The position numbers and the translations under genes were made by a program. Positions 7,622 through 32,207 of a stretch of DNA of 64,000 nucleotides are shown here, piece by piece (the first letter of the stretch is position 1; every line of letters starts with the position of its first letter). The DNA comes from Hyphomonas sp. 34-62-18 (GTDB lineage: Bacteria > Pseudomonadota > Alphaproteobacteria > Caulobacterales > Hyphomonadaceae): the NCBI GenBank assembly GCA_002282565.1, contig NCJT01000003.1:10592-74591 (forward strand), read 5' to 3'. The notes under the pieces are model-generated. The model did not search any database. It saw only the letters and a list, made by a program, of their open reading frames with translations, and was not told the DNA's origin.

Positions 7622-8521
7622 TCAGCGGAACACGCGCGGCTTCTTTGCCATGAAGCGCTGTGTTGCCTCATGGTATCGCAAAGCGCGCCCCCCCGGCGCA
7701 AGCCCATAGGTTCGCTCGCGCAGGAACTCCATCAGATCACGCCGTTTTCCGGCCGCTTCCAGCATCGCCGGGCTCAAAGTTTCACCAATACCGACCGTCA
7801 GCGTCTTACCCATCCGCCGGCGCACCTCGCGGAAGACGAGCGCAAGGCGCAGCTCCAGCGACAGGTGCGAGGCGATCTGGAAAAGGCGCGAATTCTGCCC
7901 CTCGAAGAAAACCGGCGTCACAGCGGCGCGGCCATGGGTGATGAGTTTCGCCGTGAACGGCTTCCAGTCATCATCCACGGCCAGGGGATCAAACGGGCCG
8001 GGCGTTGTCGACACACCGCCCGCCGGAAACACGATCACGCACCCGCCCGCCTTCACATGCGCTAGCGCCGCCTTGCGCATCGAGATATTGGCCGCCACGG
8101 CCTCCCGCGTTCCGGCAAAGTCCACCGGCAACAGATACGGTTTTGCCTCGGGCACGGCATCCAGAACAGAATTGGTCAGCACCCTGAAATCCTGCCGCCG
8201 CCGCCCGACCAGCCAGCTGATGACGAGCCCATCCAGCACGCCGAAGGGGTGGTTCGCCACAATCACCAGAGGCCCCTCGCCCGGCATGGCGGCGAGTCGC
8301 GCCTCGTCAAACAGGACGGAAAGCTGCAGCAAGCGAATCGCTGCATCGAAAAAGCCGGTTTCGCCCAGCTCCCCGGCACGGTAGCGCTCATAGAGGCGGG
8401 CAAGTTTTGGCTGTCCCGTTGCCCGTTCCACGGCGCGCACCAGCGCCCGCTTCAGCGGGTCGTCGAAATACGCCGCATAGGAAAGTTCCGGCGCGGCAGC
8501 AGTGTCCATCAGAGCCGCCAC
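7622..8521 (-). CDS. Lysophospholipid/glycerolipid acyltransferase family protein (PlsC-like)
   Basis: HxxxxD acyltransferase motif in VIVANHPFGVLDG, and VIVFPAGG block. An alternative ATG at 8509 overlaps the upstream stop (TGATG). Confidence 0.7.
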   Translation of the reverse strand: MAALMDTAAAPELSYAAYFDDPLKRALVRAVERATGQPKLARLYERYRAGELGETGFFDAAIRLLQLSVLFDEARLAAMPGEGPLVIVANHPFGVLDGLVISWLVGRRRQDFRVLTNSVLDAVPEAKPYLLPVDFAGTREAVAANISMRKAALAHVKAGGCVIVFPAGGVSTTPGPFDPLAVDDDWKPFTAKLITHGRAAVTPVFFEGQNSRLFQIASHLSLELRLALVFREVRRRMGKTLTVGIGETLSPAMLEAAGKRRDLMEFLRERTYGLAPGGRALRYHEATQRFMAKKPRVFR

Positions 8522-9669
8522 ATCCGCGCGAGGTTGTTCTTCTGCATATCAGATGATCCGCCTACGATTGGCATGCCCAGAAGATCACGCAGGTTGCGCT
8601 CGATATCGTAAGCATCCGACAGACCATAGGCCCCGATCACCTGCTGACAGGCGAGGCCAATCTCAACGCCGGTATCGGCCACATAGAGCTTTGCCATCGC
8701 CGTCTCTGACGAGCAGGGCTGGCCCGTGCCCGCGAGCCACGCGGCGTGATAGAGCATGTGGCGGCAGGCGGCGAGTTTCGTCCGGGCGGTGACGAGCTTG
8801 TGGGCAATTGCCTGATGCTGGCCTATGCGCTTGCCGAACTGTTCGCGCTCGCCGGCATAGCGCCAGGCTTCCTCCAGCGCGGCGCGGGCAAGGCCGAAGG
8901 CGACTGCCGTGATCTCGATCTTCTCCACGTCCAGCGCGCGGCCGGCGAGCGCCTCCCAGCCTTTGTTCCATTTCTCCGGCCCACCGACAATGGCCGTTTC
9001 GGGAAGGCGCACATCATCCAGGAACACATCCATCGAATGGGTATAGCGCAGGTTCGCATGCTCGATCGGCGCCATGGTGACGCCTTTTGCCTTTGTCGGC
9101 ACAAGGACGAAGGTAAGGTTACCATGCCGTGCGCCCGGCTCACCGGAGCGGCAGAGGCAGTAGATATAGTCCGCCCAGTCCGCCCCGGTACACCAGCGCT
9201 TGGCGCCCTGGATGACGATCTCACCCCCCTGGCGCTCCACGCGCGTCTCGACGCTTGGCAGGTCTCCGCCGACATTCGGCTCCGACAGGCCATAGGCGAG
9301 GAAAAGTTCCCCGCGCGCCAGCTTCGGCAGCAGCTCTTCTTTCTGCGCCTTCGATCCGTTCTCGGAAATATTTAGCCCGCCATAGAAGGCGGCATGGATA
9401 TAAGGCCCGGCCATGCTGGGCCCGCCCTGGCAGAGTTCCTCGATCACGGCGGCGGCGGCGTAAATGTCCTCCCCCTGCCCGCCATACTCTTCCGGAATGG
9501 TCAGGCCGATCAGCCCCATTTCCGCAATCTCGCGGAAAAGGCCCCTGTCCCACGTAGCCTCACGGTCCCATTGCCGGCGCTTCTCGCGCGGCATCTTTTC
9601 GGCCACCCAGCGGGAAAGCTGGCGGCGGATTTCAGTCACATGCTCAGGTTCTGCGGCAAAATAGGTCAT
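8509..9669 (-). CDS. Acyl-CoA dehydrogenase
   Basis: 386 aa with canonical ACAD blocks: YGLSEPNVGGD, QFGKRIGQHQAIAHKL, and C-terminal IVGGSSDMQKNNLAR. Confidence 0.9.
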   Translation of the reverse strand: MTYFAAEPEHVTEIRRQLSRWVAEKMPREKRRQWDREATWDRGLFREIAEMGLIGLTIPEEYGGQGEDIYAAAAVIEELCQGGPSMAGPYIHAAFYGGLNISENGSKAQKEELLPKLARGELFLAYGLSEPNVGGDLPSVETRVERQGGEIVIQGAKRWCTGADWADYIYCLCRSGEPGARHGNLTFVLVPTKAKGVTMAPIEHANLRYTHSMDVFLDDVRLPETAIVGGPEKWNKGWEALAGRALDVEKIEITAVAFGLARAALEEAWRYAGEREQFGKRIGQHQAIAHKLVTARTKLAACRHMLYHAAWLAGTGQPCSSETAMAKLYVADTGVEIGLACQQVIGAYGLSDAYDIERNLRDLLGMPIVGGSSDMQKNNLARMWRL

Positions 9670-24774: not shown

Positions 24775-25947
24775 TCAGGGCGCGAGCTGCGCAGTCAATG
24801 CATCAGCCAGAAGCCGGCCGCTTTCGGTCAGGGAAAGTTCCGATCCCTGCATTTTCACCCAGCCCTGCTCGGCGAACACCGCCAGCTTGTCACGCGGCAC
24901 CTGTTTGCCCGACACCAGCTCCACCCGGCGCAGGTCTACGCCTTCAGCCGCGCGCAGGCCCATGGCGAGCAGTTCGCGCGCAATGTCGAGGGGGGGAAGC
25001 TTGCCCGCATCGGCCCAGCCTTCTTGCAGCATCTGGAGACCGGCGATGTAGGCTTCCGGGCGCCGCTCAGCCTCGGTGGCATAGCGATTGCCGCTGACCG
25101 AGAGACGGCCATGCGCGCCGGGGCCAACCCCGATCCAGTCCCCGCCCCGCCAGTAAATGAGGTTGTGGCGTGACTGGTGCGCCGGCGACGCGGCATGATT
25201 GGACACTTCATAGGCCGGCAGCCCCGCCCGCGCCGTCATCTGCTGGGTGAGTTCGTAAAGGTCCGCCTGTGCATCATCCGGCATCGGAACAATATCGCCC
25301 CGCGCGGCGGCCTTTCCAAAGGCTGTCGCGGGCTCGAAAGTCAGCTCGTAAAGCGAAAGATGCGGCGCGCCGAGCGCGAGTGCGTCGGCGAGTTCGGCCT
25401 CCCAATTGGCGGGCGACTGGCCGGGGCGCGCATAGATCAGATCCATGGAAACGGACTCGAACACTTTCAGTGCCCGCTTCACCGCCTCCCCGCCTGCCTC
25501 GGCATCGTGATCGCGCCCAAGGAACGCCAAGGCAGCATCGCGCATGGACTGCACACCGATCGACAGACGCGTCACGCCCGCCCGGCGCAAACCCACAAGG
25601 TCCGCCCTCAGAACATCATTGGGGTTGGCCTCAAGCGTCACCTCAGCCCCATCCTGGAGGCCGAAGGTATCAGACGCCGCCTTCAGGATCTCGCCAACCT
25701 GTTCGGGCCGCAGCAGCGCCGGTGTGCCGCCGCCGAAATACACCGTATCCAGCGCGCCATGCTGGGGAAGCTTTCGGCGATGGGCGCGAATGTCTTCGGC
25801 GATGGCAGAAACCAGCGGCTCGGTCACCCGGTCCTTGGCGGCGTAGACGTTGAAATCACAATAGGGGCAGATGCGAGCGCAGTAGGGCCAGTGGATGTAG
25901 ATACCGAAACCGAAATGCGGGCCGAACGGGGCAAAAACCTGCGTCAT
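24775..25947 (-). CDS. hemW: Radical SAM heme chaperone HemW (HemN-like, oxygen-independent coproporphyrinogen oxidase family)
   Basis: 390 aa. [16 protein letters not shown] radical-SAM cluster motif. 4-nt overlap with rdgB. Confidence 0.85.
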
Positions 25948-26543
25948 GCGAGCAGCGCCGCGCGGAGTTTTTCAACCGCCCGCGCCCGGTGGCTCATGGC
26001 ATGTTTCCGCGCAGGCTCCATCTCGCCAAAAGTCTCGGTCTCGCCATCGGCCACGAAAACGGGGTCATAGCCAAACCCCTTCTCCCCTCGCGGCGGCCAG
26101 ACGAGCGTGCCATGCACCTCGCCCTCATAAACCGCTTCGGTGCCATCAGGCCAGGCCACGGCCAGCGCGCAGACAAACTTCGCTGACCGGTCCGGTGAAC
26201 CCGACTTCTGAAGCTCTGCCTCGACCTTTTCCATTGCCTTGTAAAAATCGCGCGGCTCGCCCGCCCAACGGGCCGAATAGATGCCCGGCTGGCCGCCGAG
26301 GGCGGTCACGGACAGGCCAGAATCATCCGACAGGGCCGGCAGGCCCGTCGCCTTCATGGCGGCGCGGGCTTTCAGCAGCGCATTGCCGGCAAAACTATCC
26401 TCGGTTTCTTCTGGCTCATCCAGACCGAGTTCAAGGGCAGAAACCACCTCAAAACCATGGGGCGCGAACAGATCTTTCAGTTCGGACACCTTGCCCTTGT
26501 TGTGTGTAGCTGCCACGAGTTTTCCGGGCACGAGGCGGGGCAT
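25944..26543 (-). CDS. rdgB: Non-canonical purine NTP pyrophosphatase RdgB (HAM1 family)
   Basis: ORF 25944..26600 trimmed to [22 protein letters not shown]. Contains [17 protein letters not shown] and FGYDPVF blocks. Confidence 0.85.
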
Positions 26544-26604
26544 AGCCGTAGCATTATTCACAGTTATGTGGCTCCATTCTTGCTTTATGCGCGAATGCAT
26601 ATAT

Positions 26605-26671: not shown

Positions 26672-27217
26672 GTGAAAAGGCCGGGTATGACAAAGACAGG
26701 CCGGAATTCGATGGCAGAGGCGATGACCGTTCTGGTCACCGTGGCGATGTGGATTGCAGGCGCCTTCGGCGTCATCGGCATTCCCGTGCTGAGCCTTGGC
26801 CTGATCGCGAGCCTCTCCAATGGTGAGGCGTCGCTGCCGGGCATAGAGGCGCTGGCAGACGGCGTGTCGCCGGGCAGCTTCGTGATCGCGCTGGGCTTGC
26901 TGTGCGTCATTGTGCCGGGTGTGATCTTCATCTGCATCCAGATGCGCCGAATCTTGCTGACCCTGGTGGAGGGCGATCCCTTCGTGCCGGAAAATGCCGG
27001 GCGCCTCTCGCGGATTGGCGTCGCCATCGCTGCAATGGAGATCATCCGGATTGTGACACTCCTGGTTGTGCGCGCCATGCCCAGCCTCGTGGGAGACGCG
27101 CCGCCAAAGCTCTCAACCCAGCTCATACTGTGGATTTCCGTGGCAGCGCTGTTCATCCTTTCCCAAGTCTTCCGGGAAGGCACCCGCCTTCGCGACGAAG
27201 AAAAAATGACGATCTGA
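26672..27217 (+). CDS. DUF2975 family membrane protein
   Basis: GTG 26672 or ATG 26687. Four TM helices. LVEGDPFVPENAGRLSRIGVAIAA and C-terminal FREGTRLRDEEKMTI resemble DUF2975. Followed by its usual HTH partner. Confidence 0.65.
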   Translation: MKRPGMTKTGRNSMAEAMTVLVTVAMWIAGAFGVIGIPVLSLGLIASLSNGEASLPGIEALADGVSPGSFVIALGLLCVIVPGVIFICIQMRRILLTLVEGDPFVPENAGRLSRIGVAIAAMEIIRIVTLLVVRAMPSLVGDAPPKLSTQLILWISVAALFILSQVFREGTRLRDEEKMTI

Positions 27218-27232
27218 GGAGCACTGACGGAC

Positions 27233-27472
27233 ATGACCATTCGCGTGACCCTCGACCGTGTGCTTCTGGAACGCCGCATGTCGCTCACTGAGCTTTCCGA
27301 GCGCGTGGGCGTTACCTTGGCCAACCTGTCGATCCTGAAAACCGGCAAGGCAAAAGCGATCCGCTTCTCAACCCTCGAAGCGCTCTGCCGCGAATTGAAA
27401 TGCCAGCCGGGCGACCTGCTCGTCTTCGACACGGAAGGCGAAGAAGACGAACGCCAGGTCGCGGCTGAATAG
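27233..27472 (+). CDS. YozG-type (HTH_26 / XRE-like) small transcriptional regulator
   Basis: 79 aa. IRVTLDRVLLERRMSLTELSERVGVTLANLSILKTGKAKAIRFSTLEALCRELKCQPGDLL is the classic family sequence. Confidence 0.8.
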   Translation: MTIRVTLDRVLLERRMSLTELSERVGVTLANLSILKTGKAKAIRFSTLEALCRELKCQPGDLLVFDTEGEEDERQVAAE

Positions 27473-27474
27473 CG

Positions 27475-27522
27475 ATCAATGGAATTAGATTGATTTTTGT
27501 GGATCAATGGAATATCATTGAT
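27475..27522. promoter_or_regulatory. Tandem pair of ATCAAT-N8-ATTGAT palindromes (candidate operators) directly upstream of the SatD-like gene
   Basis: Site 1 at 27475..27494 (ATCAATggaattagATTGAT). Site 2 at 27503..27522 (ATCAATggaatatcATTGAT, extended to GGATCAATG/CATTGATCC). Starts are 28 nt apart. Confidence 0.6.
27490..27518 (+). promoter_or_regulatory. Predicted sigma-70-type promoter giving a leaderless SatD-like mRNA
   Basis: TTGATT (27490-27495), 17-nt spacer, TATCAT (27513-27518). The ATG at 27525 lies 7 nt after the -10 and has no SD. Both hexamers overlap the palindromes. Confidence 0.4.
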
Positions 27523-27524
27523 CC

Positions 27525-28205
27525 ATGCTCCCCCCCGATCACGCCTGTCTTCTTCTTTGCGACCTCAAAGGGTCAAGTGGTTTCGGCCCTGAAAAAGGGG
27601 GTGAGCTTCTTGCGCAACTGGAAGCCCTGCTGGTTCAGCTGAACGAACGCCACGCAGCTGATATCATTCTGCCGTTGGAGATTAGTTACGGTGACGAAAT
27701 TGCCAGTTTGCTCCTCCATCCGGAGGCCGCTTTCGAGATTGTGCGGGCGCTGCGGAAGGGGCTGGGCGTTCAAATGGCATTCCGCTTCGCGGTCGTGTTC
27801 GGCCAGATTGGGGCCAGAACCTCCAATATCCGCCAAATCGGCGGGGAGGTTTTCACTATCGCCAATGCAGCCATCAGCCGGCTGAAGCGGCAGAACCGGT
27901 TTGGCGAGTGGCATATTTTCAAAGATGCCCGCGATATTGAACTCACCCTGCTGACAAACCTCTGCCAAGGTTTCATCGCCCGGATGACGGACTATCAGTT
28001 TCTAGTTTACATCCTCTTGGCCGAAGGCTTGTCACAGAAAGCGGTCGCCGAACGGCTGGGCAAATATCCGCAATCAGTTTCTGACGCGGTCCGCCGGGCC
28101 GAAATAGATCTTGTGATCGAAGCAGAAAATCAAATAATCGATCGACTGCGAGCCTATAATCAATCGAATCTCGTTGTTTTGGAGAAATCAATTGAATCCA
28201 ATTGA
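27525..28205 (+). CDS. SatD-family protein: nucleotidyl-cyclase-like N-domain fused to a C-terminal HTH
   Basis: 226 aa. LLLCDLKGSSGF and ISYGDEIASLL acidic motifs, then FRFAVVFGQIG, fit the SatD N-domain pattern (GDxxxS..GDEFQ..RFGIG). The C-terminal LSQKAVAERLGKYPQSVSDAVRRAE is a sigma-r4/LuxR-like HTH. Confidence 0.6.
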   Translation: MLPPDHACLLLCDLKGSSGFGPEKGGELLAQLEALLVQLNERHAADIILPLEISYGDEIASLLLHPEAAFEIVRALRKGLGVQMAFRFAVVFGQIGARTSNIRQIGGEVFTIANAAISRLKRQNRFGEWHIFKDARDIELTLLTNLCQGFIARMTDYQFLVYILLAEGLSQKAVAERLGKYPQSVSDAVRRAEIDLVIEAENQIIDRLRAYNQSNLVVLEKSIESN

Positions 28206-28206
28206 T
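28159..28206. promoter_or_regulatory. Second copy of the 48-bp double-palindrome cassette, inside the SatD 3' end
   Basis: ATCAATcgaatctcGTTGTT (28159..28178, degenerate) and ATCAATtgaatccaATTGAT (28187..28206, perfect). Again 28 nt apart. 32 of 48 positions are identical to 27475..27522. Confidence 0.55.
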
Positions 28207-28578
28207 ATAGCCATCCTGGTCGGCATGGCGCTTGGATCGCATATTCTCTCCACGCTGATCATCCGCCTCGGCATCCCCCGCCTCAAATCCGGCGATATCC
28301 CCGCCACCGAGGGCGGCGCCCTTCCCGAGAGCACCAAGGGCCGCGTCTTTGATCTGGGATCGACCGGCTTCTGGATTGGGCTGTGTGAAACACTCCTGAT
28401 TTTCATTCTGGTCAGTGCCCAGCAGTTCAGCGCCCTGGCGATTATCATCGGGGTCAAACAGTTCGTGCGTAGCGACAAGATCCAGCAGAACCCGTCTTAC
28501 TACCTGCTCGGTACCTTCTGCAACCTGACGATCGCCACACTGTTCGCCCTAACGGCAAACCAGATCATCAGCGGCTGA
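28192..28578 (+). CDS. Small 4-TM membrane protein, partner of the SatD-like gene (possibly DUF3307/SatC-like)
   Basis: The TTG at 28192 follows a GGAGA SD (alternatives TTG 28174, ATG 28225). It overlaps the SatD stop (28203-28205). Four predicted helices. Family not verifiable by eye. Confidence 0.5.
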   Translation: MNPIDIAILVGMALGSHILSTLIIRLGIPRLKSGDIPATEGGALPESTKGRVFDLGSTGFWIGLCETLLIFILVSAQQFSALAIIIGVKQFVRSDKIQQNPSYYLLGTFCNLTIATLFALTANQIISG

Positions 28579-28585
28579 AGCCCGC

Positions 28586-29314
28586 TTAGAGCCCCAGCGC
28601 CGCCCGCTGCGCAGCAAAGAGTTCGCCGCAGCCTTTCTCGGCGAGGCGCATCATCTCATCCAGTTCCGGGCGCGACATGGGACGGGATTCGCCTGTGCCC
28701 TGGACCTCAATGAAGCCGCCATCAGAGCTCATCACCACGTTCATGTCTGCCTCGCCGGCCGAATCCTCGGGGTAATCCACGTCCAGCACCGGCATGTCCT
28801 GGAAGAGACCCACCGAAATCGCAGCGGCCTGTTTCAGGATCGGGTCCGCCTTGATCACACCTTCAGTCTGAAGATAGCGGCAGGCCATGGCGAGGGCGAC
28901 AAAGCCGCCGGTGATCGACGCCGTGCGCGTGCCGCCATCGGCCTGGATCACGTCGCAATCGATGGTGATCGTATTCTCGCCGAGCGCAGCCAGGTTCACC
29001 ACTGAGCGCATCGAGCGCCCAATCAGGCGCTGGATTTCCTGGGTGCGGCCAGACTGTTTGCCCGCCGCTGCCTCCCGGCGCCCGCGCGTGTGCGTGGCGC
29101 GCGGCAGCATGCCATACTCGCCGGTCACCCAGCCCTCGCCCTTGCCCTTCATCCAGCCGGGCACACCCTTCTCCCAGCTGGCCGTGCACAGCACATGCGT
29201 ATGACCGAACTTGGCGAGGCACGAGCCTTCAGCGTAGCGCGTTACGCCGGTTTCGAGCGAAATCGGGCGCAGCTGGTCAAAAGCGCGGCCCGAGGGGCGA
29301 ACAAGATTTGGCAT
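28586..29314 (-). CDS. rph: Ribonuclease PH
   Basis: ORF 28586..29851 trimmed to [32 protein letters not shown]. Contains [17 protein letters not shown] and [18 protein letters not shown] blocks. Confidence 0.9.
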
Positions 29315-29404
29315 CTTCGGGAATCCTTCTAGCTGATGGCCTGATTTGCGGGTTTTGCGGCGCCTGTCTACACCGGCAGCTGTCAACGGGAGAGCAGAAG
29401 AGCA

Positions 29405-31075
29405 ATGGCCACGGATATCGAGATTGCCCGCGCGGCGAAGAAACAGCCGATCCAGGAGATCGCCGCCCGCATCGGCGCCGCCCCCGAAGACATCATCCCT
29501 TACGGTCATGACAAGGCAAAACTCTCGGCCGCCTTCCTTCAGCGCCAGTCCGCCCGTCCCGATGGCAAGCTCATCCTCGTCACCGCCATCAACCCCACCC
29601 CCGCCGGCGAGGGCAAGACCACCACCTCTATCGGCCTTGCTGACGCGATGAACCGCATCGGGGCAAACACCCTCCTCTGCCTGCGCGAGCCATCGCTTGG
29701 CCCCTGTTTCGGCATGAAGGGTGGCGCCACAGGCGGCGGCCTCGCCCAGATCGTGCCGATGGAAGACATCAACCTGCACTTCACCGGCGACTTCCACGCC
29801 ATCACGTCGGCGCACAACCTCCTCTCCGCCCTGGTCGATAACCACATCCACTGGGGCGGCGAGCCGAAGCTGGAAACCGCTCGCACCAGCTGGCGCCGCG
29901 TGATGGACATGAACGACCGTAGCCTGAGGAATATCGTCTCCGGCCTCGGCGGGCCCGGCAATGGTTCGCCCTCGGAAACCGGCTTTGACATCACCGTTGC
30001 CTCCGAGGTGATGGCCATTCTCTGCCTTGCGACCGATGCTGAAGATCTGGAGGCCCGCCTCTCCCGCATCATCGTCGGCTACACGCGCGAGAAGGCCGCC
30101 GTCACTGCCGCAGACATAAAAGCCACCGGCGCCATGATGGCGCTGCTGCGCGATGCCATGCTACCAAACCTTGTCCAGACGCTCGAAAACAATCCCTGCC
30201 TCGTACATGGCGGCCCTTTCGCCAATATCGCCCATGGCTGCAACTCGGTCATGGCAACCAGCGCAGCCCTGAAAATGGCAGATTATGTCGTCACCGAAGC
30301 GGGTTTTGGCGCAGACCTGGGCGCGGAGAAGTTTCTCAACATCAAATGCCGCCAGGCTGGCCTTGCGCCGGACGCCGTGGTTCTCGTCGCCACCATCCGC
30401 GCCCTGAAGATGCATGGCGGGCTGGCGAAAGATGATCTCGGCAAAGTCAGCTATGAAGCGCTGGAGAAAGGCCTCGCCAATCTCGCCCGCCATATCGAAA
30501 ACCTGCGCAGTTTCGGCTTGCCGGTCGTCGTTGCCATCAACCGGTTCACCACCGACACTGAAGGCGAAGTTCACGCGCTACAGACTTATTGCGATAAACT
30601 CTCCGTACCCGTCGCGCTCTGCACCCATTGGGCAGAAGGCGGCAAAGGCGCCGAAAGCCTCGCCCGCAGTGTGGTCAAGCTGATCGAAGAGGGCACAGCC
30701 GATTTCAAGCCGCTGTACCCGGACAATCTTTCCCTGATGGAAAAGATTGAAACAGTGGCAAAATCCATCTACCGGGCCGACCGGGTGGAAGCCACGCGCG
30801 CAGTCAAAAACCAGCTTGCCGCGTGGGAAAAGGCGGGCTTCGGCCACCTGCCCGTCTGCATGGCCAAGACCCAGTACAGCTTCTCGACGGACCCTGCCCT
30901 GCTCGGCGCCCCGGAAGGCCATGTGGTCCGTCTTCGGGAAGTGCGCCTCGCTGCCGGGGCGGGCTTCGTCGTCGCCATTTGCGGTGACATCATGACGATG
31001 CCGGGCCTCCCCCGCCGCCCCGCGGCCGAACACATTCACCTCAACGATCAGGGCCAGATCGAAGGGCTGAACTAG
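29405..31075 (+). CDS. fhs: Formate--tetrahydrofolate ligase
   Basis: 556 aa. [12 protein letters not shown] start, [11 protein letters not shown]-loop, [10 protein letters not shown] block. Confidence 0.95.
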
Positions 31076-31118
31076 CCTCCCTATTGAACCGCGAATGATC
31101 CGCCCTTAATCCAGAGAC

Positions 31119-32207
31119 ATGGCGGACCAGTCGGAAATCCTCAGCCTGATGCAAAGGCTCGACCAGCGCTCGCGGGATATTTTCCGGGAGATTGTCGAGG
31201 GCTATCTGGCAACCGGAGAGCCCGTCGGCTCGCGCACCCTTTCCAAGGCCGGCATTGCCCTCTCCCCGGCCTCGATCCGCAATGTGATGGCAGACCTGAC
31301 AGACCTCGGCCTGCTCGATGCCCCGCACATTTCCGCCGGCCGCGCGCCCACCCATAAGGGCCTCCGCCTCTTCGTCGACGGCTTCCTCGAATACGGCGAC
31401 CCGTCCAAGGAAGACAAGAAACAGATCGATGACCGCCTGGCCTCCGCCGGAACCGACATCGAAGCGGTTCTGGGCGAAGCCTCCGATATTCTCTCCGGCC
31501 TTGCCGGCGGCGCCGGGCTCGTCGCCTCCCCTGCCCGGGACGCGGCGGTGCGCCATGTCGAATTCGTGCCATTGGCCGGTGGTGACGCCCTCTGCGTCCT
31601 CGTCACCGAGGATGGCGATGTTGAAAACCGCATCCTCAAAGTGCCTGATGGCCTGCCAGCCACCTCACTGATAGAGGCGGGAAACTACCTTTCCACACGC
31701 CTGAAAGGCCGCACCCTGGCCGAAGCGGCCAGCGAAGTCCGCGCCGAACTTCAGGACCGCCGGGCGCAGCTCGACGCGGCGACCAGCGCCCTCGTCGAAG
31801 CCGGTCTCGCCGAATGGGGCGGGGATACGCCGGGCCGCGGGCGCAGCCTGATCGTGCGGGGGCGCGCCAATCTGCTGGAAGATGCCAAGGCCGCCCAGGA
31901 CCTCGACCGGGTGCGGCAATTGTTCAATGAGCTGGAACGCCAGCAAAGCCTTCTTGAAATTCTCGACACAACGCGCGAAGCGGGCGGCGTGCGCCTGTTC
32001 ATCGGGTCGGAAAACAGGCTTTTTCCGCTGTCTGGTTCAAGTGTGATTGTGGCACCCTATATGGGCGGCACGAAACATGTGATTGGGGCACTCGGCGTTA
32101 TCGGGCCAACACGGCTCAATTATGCCCGGGTAATCCCGATGGTCGATTATACCGCTAAGGTGGTGGGGGAAATCCTCTCATCCCGGCGCGGAAAGGATGG
32201 GAAGTGA
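31119..32207 (+). CDS. hrcA: Heat-inducible transcription repressor HrcA
   Basis: 362 aa. [18 protein letters not shown] winged-helix N-terminus. Followed by grpE with a TGATG overlap. Confidence 0.9.

Follow-up and report, generated by a model that had tools for sequence, protein, structure and literature searches.

The SatD family (PF16264) is named after satD in the ylxM-ffh-satCDE operon of Streptococcus mutans, and to our knowledge no biochemical function has been demonstrated for it. SatD and the SatC-type DUF3307 proteins (PF11750) are catalogued families with almost no literature, although they occur in many phyla. Here we describe a satD-like gene and an overlapping gene for a small membrane protein in a stretch of 64,000 nucleotides (nt) from Hyphomonas sp. 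34-62-18 (contig NCJT01000003.1, positions 10,592-74,591 of the forward strand), hereafter called the window. The pair is probably best explained as a self-contained, autoregulated two-gene signaling unit of the SatD/SatC type, composed of a predicted transcription factor with a palm domain and a dedicated membrane partner. That the first protein is a SatD family member is already known, and an NR entry identical to its product of 226 amino acids (aa) carries the name "SatD family protein". New are the model-based structural evidence for a cyclase-type palm with a retained metal site, the recognition from sequence comparisons of the partner as a likely SatC C-terminal module rather than a DUF3307 protein, and the conserved operator-like arrays at the locus, which were absent from the first-pass annotation of the window.

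The closest described systems share parts of this design. The SatD family as a whole resembles the window protein in length, in the layout of palm and helix-turn-helix (HTH) domains and in the adjoining SatC-type membrane gene, but the window partner is short and lacks the DUF3307 domain, and the window SatD appears to fall in a divergent subfamily. Class III cyclases such as Ma1120 and Rv1900c share the palm fold and have two metal-binding Asp residues in equivalent structural places, whereas the SatD domain has only about 130 aa, Ile53 instead of the specificity Lys and no Guanylate_cyc match. The mycobacterial cyclase-LuxR fusions Rv0386, Rv1358 and Rv2488c likewise combine a cyclase domain with a LuxR-type HTH on one chain, but they are large STAND-type proteins, unlike the 226-aa SatD that is paired with a membrane gene. 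Pairs of extracytoplasmic function (ECF) sigma factors and membrane anti-sigma factors, as well as Mlc-PtsG, resemble the satD pair in their autoregulated operon (predicted for satD), sigma-r4-like domain, downstream membrane gene and frequent gene overlap. SatD differs from an ECF sigma factor in that it has no sigma region 2, its N-terminal domain is a palm and its putative targets are palindromic, which would imply a dimeric repressor or activator rather than recognition of a promoter -35 element.

Two further systems deserve comparison. In the PucR/MabR-type regulators (PF17853 + PF13556), a GGDEF/cyclase-fold domain lies N-terminal to the HTH in a dimeric or tetrameric protein (PMC11617747), and SatD shares this domain order. 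However, D13 and G-D57-E58 are retained in SatD, whereas the fold of MabR is devoid of the catalytic/inhibitory motifs (HGTWL, RHGR). The HTHs also belong to different families, a membrane partner is not obligatory for PucR regulators, and neither Pfam family is matched by SatD. In Panoptes (mCpol + 2TM-SAVED; PMC12657218), a minimal palm nucleotide synthase is encoded beside a small membrane protein. Panoptes, Pycsar and CBASS thus resemble the satD pair in that the gene for a palm-domain protein adjoins one for a small membrane protein, but the SatD partner consists only of helices and short loops and has no SAVED, CARF or cNMP-binding sensor, while SatD has an HTH with operator-like sites on its own operon, no defense context and no PADLOC match.

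The PF16264 match of the window protein lies above the gathering cut-off (31.3 versus 29 bits, E 2.1e-7, residues 30-192 on positions 22-195 of the 211-position profile), in agreement with the family assignment of the first-pass annotation. The protein shows the layout of the family, in which an alpha/beta domain with the motifs D-x-x-x-S-[ST] and G-D precedes a C-terminal HTH, and a SatC-type membrane gene adjoins satD. Many SatD homologs carry precomputed PF16264 matches and many close homologs fall under the Pfam threshold; judged from sequence, the window SatD belongs to a divergent subfamily. A paper on the cyclase-like DUF2652 (PMC4886424) concerns a different family.

The evidence for the fold of the N-terminal domain comes from structure comparison. 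An AlphaFold (AF2) model of SatD, built from an alignment of 80 sequences (A3), has a predicted local distance difference test score (pLDDT) of 90.9 and a predicted template modeling score (pTM) of 0.87, and its residues 1-130 show, in DSSP, the beta-alpha-beta-beta-alpha-beta-alpha-beta order of a palm. In a Foldseek search of the PDB, Ma1120 (E 5e-6) and Rv1900c, both class III adenylyl cyclases, rank first, with E-values of 5e-6 to 6e-5, a probability of 1.00 and a TM-score on the target of 0.51-0.60, followed by soluble guanylyl cyclase (sGC), uridylate cyclase (8jsz), GGDEF proteins (WspR, SadC), Cas10/Cmr2 and GTP cyclohydrolase III. In the model, beta1 ends with D13, and the beta2-beta3 hairpin carries G56-D57-E58. 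Profile alignment pairs D13 and D57 with the ILFTDIEEST and KSQGD motifs of Ma1120, the two aspartates of which are the metal-binding pair of class III cyclases. The hairpin reads S-Y-G-D-E-[IF], a partial match to the GGDEF motif, but no Pfam GGDEF match was obtained and the GGDEF structures rank below the cyclases in Foldseek; nor was there a Guanylate_cyc match in Pfam at E<=0.1.

The residues of the putative metal site are strongly conserved. Invariant in 21 genome-derived SatD sequences (A4) are D13, S17, Y55, G56, D57, E58, R87, G106, G107, F110 and W129, with R103 and K121 conserved in at least 90% of them, and D13, Y55, G56, D57 and E58 are invariant or at least 90% conserved across alignments of 21 to 80 sequences. 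Even the remote SatD-like proteins of loci L026 and L027 retain the D...S[ST] and GD motifs. From the sequence alone, the first-pass annotation had suggested a nucleotidyl-cyclase/GGDEF-type fold with two acidic motifs; the AF2 model and Foldseek agree with the proposed fold, conservation and the Ma1120 alignment uphold the motifs, and the peptides that it quoted (LLLCDLKGSSGF, ISYGDEIASLL, FRFAVVFGQIG and, from the C-terminal region, LSQKAVAERLGKYPQSVSDAVRRAE) are all present in the translation.

The C-terminal part of SatD had been read as a sigma-r4/LuxR-like HTH, and matches of the sigma-r4/GerE type agree with this. Residues 135-209 are helical and weakly resemble the HTH domains of sigma-70 region 4, GerE, NarL and Tfx, and the last 60 residues gave many weak Pfam HTH matches, including Sigma70_r4_2, HTH_23 and MarR_2. 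The sigma r4 match is below threshold (16.8 bits versus 25.7), as is TIGR02937 (13.8 versus 42.9). The recognition helix KYPQSVSDAVRR is nearly invariant, and K-Y-P-Q-S-V-S-D-A-V-R-R hardly varies between phyla. A weak, non-significant match of the HTH (E 0.64) to a UPF0122/YlxM protein (PDB 1s7o) may be a coincidence; ylxM heads the ylxM-ffh-satCDE cluster in S. mutans. Residues from about 209 to 226 (28150-28205; ..NQSNLVVLEKSIESN) form a tail that is conserved among close relatives though modeled with low confidence (pLDDT <50). In Hyphomonas this conserved tail (..NQSN..EKSIESN) is encoded by two of the palindromes described below (3 and 4 in Table 1), so that a constraint on the DNA probably shows up as conservation of an unstructured protein segment.

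The two genes are nearly always linked. With one genome scanned per species, we obtained 25 loci (L001-L025), which belong to Pseudomonadota, Gemmatimonadota, Bacteroidota, Verrucomicrobiota, Calditrichota, Acidobacteriota and unclassified metagenome-assembled genomes (MAGs). Of the 22 loci with enough downstream DNA, 21 have the membrane gene directly after satD and in the same orientation, at distances of -152 to +136 nt and frequently with a stop/start overlap, so that the linkage to a membrane partner expected in the first-pass annotation holds in at least six phyla. In the single exception, L023 from a Holophagae MAG (7977-8640), a truncation or frameshift interrupts the HTH in the satD-like open reading frame (ORF), and the partner gene is absent; both genes of the pair thus seem to have decayed together. 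An all-versus-all clustering of neighboring genes recovered no third conserved gene, only the two genes and antisense shadow ORFs; the greedy ORF calling picks such shadow ORFs in loci with a high GC content, and the census of neighbors is therefore approximate. The satD pair is thus a unit found in many bacterial phyla.

In the window, the ORF pair, the GGAGA/TTG start and the gene overlap were found as previously described (Table 1). The satD stop codon TGA occupies 28203-28205 and the overlap comprises 14 nt. The TTG start agrees with a 128-aa NCBI product (P0024, 100% identity) and with the N-terminus MNP[IV]D, which is kept in the Hyphomonas relatives.

Table 1. Predicted features of the satD locus (positions in the window)
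Feature	Positions	Strand	Description
satD-like gene	27525..28205	+	226 aa, ATG start; palm domain + HTH regulator
Palm domain (class III cyclase/GGDEF-like)	27525..27920	+	aa 1-132; from AF2 model, Foldseek and conservation
Helical linker + sigma-70 region 4/GerE-like HTH	27927..28151	+	aa 135-209; from HTH matches and conservation
Membrane partner gene	28192..28578	+	128 aa from TTG; an ORF from 28174 would give 134 aa
Shine-Dalgarno sequence GGAGA	28181..28185	+	6 nt ahead of TTG 28192
Operator-like palindrome 1	27475..27494		ATCAATGGAATTAGATTGAT, exact; starts 2 nt after the HTH_26 stop; right half plus T gives TTGATT
Operator-like palindrome 2	27503..27522		ATCAATGGAATATCATTGAT; 28 bp after site 1, ends 2 nt before the satD ATG, holds TATCAT
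Operator-like palindrome 3	28159..28178		ATCAATCGAATCTCGTTGTT, 10/12; inside the satD 3' end
Operator-like palindrome 4	28187..28206		ATCAATTGAATCCAATTGAT, 12/12; covers the membrane gene TTG and the satD stop
Sigma-70-like promoter TTGATT-17-TATCAT	27490..27518	+	Within palindromes 1 and 2; -10 ends 6 nt before the ATG

The pair is accompanied by an array of operator-like sites, which the first-pass annotation missed and which we take as the sites of a regulator acting on its own operon. The window contains four copies of an imperfect palindrome of 20-21 bp, arranged in two pairs that are both spaced by exactly 28 bp. With a 20-bp consensus of ATCAAT-N8-ATTGAT, scored over the 12 half-site positions with at least 10/12 required for a site, the 64 kb hold five matches (at most two mismatches), of which four are located at the satD locus, three of them exact. 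In the 25 loci, the 22.6 kb between -150 and +760 relative to satD contain 55 sites and the remaining 310 kb contain 23, so that the sites are enriched 33-fold near satD. Their positions relative to the satD start are stereotyped (about -50/-55, -22/-27, +634 and +662); the -50 site also occurs in L001, L006, L011, L015 and others, and about half of the loci have a junction site just before the start of the membrane gene. Since only satD and its partner are conserved at these loci, SatD would be the obvious binder. Other half-sites occupy the same places in L013 (AAACC/GGTTT), L020 (TAAATC/GATTTA) and L022 (TTGAC/GTCAA), and the recognition helices of these proteins also differ (KYPQSISRAIKQ, KHKQSVSNSIKR and KSKQSISSAAVR, respectively); half-site variants thus accompany recognition-helix variants, although the covariation is loose and uncounted. 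Likewise, a canonical locus with SatD and a long DUF3307 protein (L027) has 20-bp palindromes of the form TATAGG-N8-CCTATA, again with a 28-bp spacing, while L026 has three direct repeats of 29 bp.

The position of the predicted promoter inside palindromes 1 and 2, with its -10 element so near the start codon, suggests that satD is autorepressed and that its mRNA may be leaderless or near-leaderless. A -10 element that ends 6-9 nt before the start codon was also found in L001, L003, L009, L017, L020, L021 and L023. A second sigma-70-like match, TTGTGA-16-AATAAT at 28111-28138, lies in the 3' part of satD upstream of palindromes 3 and 4 and might serve the membrane gene as an internal promoter, but two such hits in 2.2 kb are not above chance (mean 1.1).

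The first-pass annotation had predicted four transmembrane helices for the partner, which is approximately right: the AF2 model (pLDDT 80.7) has three long hydrophobic helices (3-31, 58-75 and 101-127) and a short one (79-92), plus a short amphipathic helix (94-99) and a disordered loop (34-48). No meaningful fold match was obtained in the PDB (best E 4.1). The partner is more conserved than SatD, with a mean column identity of 49%, and its relatives beyond the closest Hyphomonas-like ones are 49-62% identical to the window protein. Invariant residues include R25, L44, P45, S47, D54, W61, E66, K89, R93, L106, G107 and N111, and the conserved motifs are LPES, FD..STGFWIG.CET.LIF.LV, ALAIIIGAKQFVR and NPSYYLLGTL.NL. 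By the positive-inside rule, the conserved polar stretches R25-K32...D54 and K89-K96 would face the cytoplasm. In the corresponding gene of a Bacteroidetes MAG (L019, 8600-9100) we observed an in-frame stop.

The DUF3307 label that had been proposed for the partner did not survive. Neither this protein nor any of its 65 close homologs has a Pfam domain, DUF3307 included (no match at E<=0.1 for the partner), and hmmscan thus rejects the membership; instead, we find the partner homologous to the C-terminal half of long proteins with DUF3307. An exhaustive profile search with the membrane module gave 1,521 cluster representatives at E<=1e-3, and among 93 more remote relatives that were scanned, seven are long proteins (240-276 aa) with a true DUF3307 domain in their N-terminal half (E down to 2e-23). 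In these, DUF3307 covers residues 3-132 and the part that resembles the window protein spans 123-276; hhalign matches the partner to residues 179-259 of 262 (99.2%, E 8.4e-20). The C-terminal stretch of about 80 residues shares the pattern G-x-x-IG-x-x-E-[RT]...A-[IL]-x-x-I-I-[AG]-AK-x-x-x-R...YYL-x-GTL, and in both cases the gene follows a satD-like gene, but the window partner has a single N-terminal helix and the LPES-containing loop in place of the DUF3307 domain. The motifs H..DF.[LF]Q, H..[IV]D and [DG]Q..H, invariant in the alignment of the long proteins, are absent from the alignment of the window-partner family, and a profile search with the N-domain found no DUF3307-type ORF in the window or in L001-L025. 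Because the match is restricted to the C-terminal half and both the DUF3307 motifs and a DUF3307 ORF are absent, the partner appears, from these alignments, to be a stand-alone form of the C-terminal, Pfam-unmodeled module of SatC-type proteins.

The statement in the first-pass annotation that SatD genes often adjoin DUF3307 genes is borne out, since SatD-like genes also precede the long DUF3307 proteins. The SatD-like protein of L027 aligns with A3 (hhalign 97%, E 5e-11), the match for L026 is weaker with the same motifs, and in L029 an HTH tail upstream overlaps the membrane gene by 4 nt. The long SatC-type proteins, of 240-280 aa, have an invariant set of His and Asp residues (H12, D16, H41, H69, D73 and H110 in the numbering of P0303), and these helix motifs suggest a membrane-embedded metal site or a hydrolase. 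Directly downstream of the long DUF3307 protein in L026 is a gene for a membrane protein with an HXXEE domain (PF13787; 2061-2585). The 150 aa of one database protein (P0247) correspond to just the C-terminal part of a longer ORF, of 281 aa and with a DUF3307 domain, that starts at position 78 of L028 (78-923); mis-called starts thus account for some of the "short" proteins collected for the family.

We propose that the HTH of SatD most likely binds the 20-bp sequence ATCAAT-N8-ATTGAT as a dimer, with dimerization probably mediated by the palm, as it is in class III cyclases. SatD bound to palindromes 1 and 2 should repress satD, because this pair overlaps the -35 and -10 elements of the promoter, and binding to palindromes 3 and 4 should also limit expression of the partner, because these lie over its ribosome-binding site and start codon. 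The palm, which keeps both metal-binding Asp residues and several conserved Arg and Lys residues and for that reason most likely binds Mg-NTP, is probably catalytic and would set or report the state of SatD. Owing to the gene overlap, the membrane protein would be made in step, or in fixed proportion, with SatD, and its two positively charged polar loops, predicted to be cytoplasmic, would probably bind or modulate SatD by direct contact. Such a sequestration could resemble that by anti-sigma factors or that of Mlc by PtsG. In a bolder version of the model, which we consider doubtful as yet, SatD would be a new kind of nucleotide-signal enzyme, a minimal palm nucleotidyltransferase bound to the DNA at tandem operators. 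The dedicated membrane protein would switch its production of a nucleotide, giving a widespread route from membrane to gene unrelated to two-component systems and ECF sigma factors, with the DUF3307 domain of the long SatC proteins as a sensory or enzymatic input.

A bare annotation is thereby turned into a testable model with a 20-bp predicted operator of fixed architecture, a predicted leaderless and autoregulated promoter, a palm with a metal site and a specific partner domain outside the current Pfam models. If SatD binds the sites and its palm binds or converts nucleotides, the pair would represent a new, compact coupling of a membrane signal and nucleotide chemistry to transcription.

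Several observations speak against a signaling unit of this kind. In the Ma1120 alignment, the class III base-specifying Lys (K of K-S-Q-G-D) is replaced by Ile53 in SatD. The region of the transition-state Asn and Arg, which we take to be G-D-T-V-N-x-A-S-R, presumably corresponds to G-G-E-V-F-T-I-A-N-A in SatD (family consensus VGGxVFKxA), so that the pair is provisionally judged absent. Strict cyclase chemistry is therefore doubtful, and with the Asp pair retained, the SatD palm has an intact metal site without the class III substrate logic. Sequence-only profile similarity between SatD and the cyclases was not significant (E 0.55), and the claim for the fold thus rests on structure comparison. 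Furthermore, the case for binding of the palindromes by SatD is drawn from co-occurrence and loose covariation, junction sites with the canonical half-site were present only in about 10 of 21 loci, and the palindromes could also fold as RNA hairpins. Our literature search found no paper on the biochemistry of SatD or the function of DUF3307, and in PucR/MabR-type regulators a GGDEF-like domain beside an HTH can be non-catalytic (PMC11617747).

One rival view is that SatD has a dead palm like that of PucR/MabR, a fold used only for dimerization or effector binding, and that the membrane protein is a regulated output, such as a small transporter or stress protein, rather than a partner of SatD. 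The PucR family does combine a GGDEF-like fold with an HTH in the absence of catalytic motifs (PMC11617747), SatD lacks the class III specificity Lys, and operator-like sites ahead of the membrane gene would fit a regulated target. We nevertheless regard this as rather unlikely, since SatD, unlike MabR, retains both metal-binding Asp residues, the GDE motif and the S/T that follows the first Asp, as very divergent family members also do, since neither PF17853 nor PF13556 is matched, and since the strict co-inheritance, the frequent stop/start overlap and the joint loss in L023 suggest more than a regulator and its target. The palindromes might instead act in the RNA rather than as DNA sites for a protein: hairpins would occlude the ribosome-binding site and start codon of the membrane gene and thereby block its translation until they are opened by ribosomes that complete satD. 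The junction palindrome folds over the TTG start with a dG of -10.5 kcal/mol and the upstream pair (z -3.05) and the pair in L004 (z -4.9) fold well. However, shuffled sequence folds as well as the junction hairpin does (z -1.25), what is kept across phyla is the sequence of the half-sites, with mismatches that are not compensatory, transcription from the promoter that the upstream pair overlaps would begin after the sites, and there is no Rfam match. An RNA role of this kind strikes us as highly improbable, even though hairpin and DNA-site roles of the palindromes are not mutually exclusive.

The first-pass annotation had suggested a signaling or conflict module, loosely analogous to systems of a cyclase and a transmembrane effector. 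As an anti-phage module, the palm would make a nucleotide signal on infection and the membrane protein would be the killing effector, in the logic of Pycsar, CBASS and Panoptes. This assignment is tempting: the fold is common to Pycsar-type and class III cyclases, the uridylate cyclase 8jsz and Cas10, the layout of a cyclase and a transmembrane protein in two genes fits, the GC content is below that of the flanks and the distribution across phyla is patchy. However, neither SatD nor the membrane protein was matched by PADLOC, and the 76 flanking proteins examined with PADLOC and Pfam are varied housekeeping enzymes that share no recurrent theme, the defense hits being isolated (each in one or two of the 76). 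No relatives of the pair were found in IMG/VR, GenBank phages or PLSDB plasmids. The 128-aa partner leaves no room for a soluble domain able to sense a nucleotide and is more conserved than SatD, unlike fast-evolving effectors, and known cyclase-effector defense systems lack an HTH with operator-like sites on the operon. A role in defense is thus not supported, and we consider it very unlikely. Much the same applies to a toxin-antitoxin-like pair, in which SatD would be an autorepressor that neutralizes a small membrane toxin. The gene order, overlap, promoter palindromes and small size are indeed reminiscent of type II toxin-antitoxin operons. The satD pair differs from these in being single-copy and chromosomal, in housekeeping contexts and absent from the plasmids and phages searched; its membrane protein, unlike typical toxins, is highly conserved across phyla and in other lineages is joined to a larger membrane domain rich in His and Asp, and a palm domain of 130 aa would have no role. 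We therefore give this explanation hardly any credence and favor the autoregulated SatD/SatC-type signaling unit.

The genomic surroundings in the window suggest an old acquisition. We take the upstream flank to be hemW and rdgB on the minus strand (24775-26600), and the downstream flank (28586-32207) to be rph (minus strand), fhs and hrcA, all of them housekeeping genes as read from the translations. The GC content is 0.51-0.56 over 27200-28400 against 0.63-0.68 in the flanks, and the low-GC block comprises four genes (0.51-0.60) between rdgB and rph. The first-pass annotation had spoken of an inserted block; the lower GC content fits an acquisition, but no tRNA, flanking repeat, mobility gene or Rfam element marks an insertion boundary at the locus. 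The same four-gene block is present in H. polymorpha (L001), which points to an old acquisition rather than a recent insertion.

The other two genes of the block lie just upstream of satD. They encode a DUF2975 membrane protein (26672..27217, plus strand; Pfam E 6.5e-9) and, after it, a Cro/C1-type HTH_26 protein (27233..27472, plus strand; E 6e-21) with weak similarity to VanU/TrbA, the stop codon of which is 2 nt from the first satD palindrome. We considered these as part of the satD module or as the source of the palindrome binder and rejected this: they join the satD pair only in Hyphomonas (the window and L001), whereas the palindrome is conserved elsewhere, and we therefore regard them as a separate module. 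The strand of satD thus encodes, just ahead of it, another combination of a small membrane protein with a small HTH regulator.

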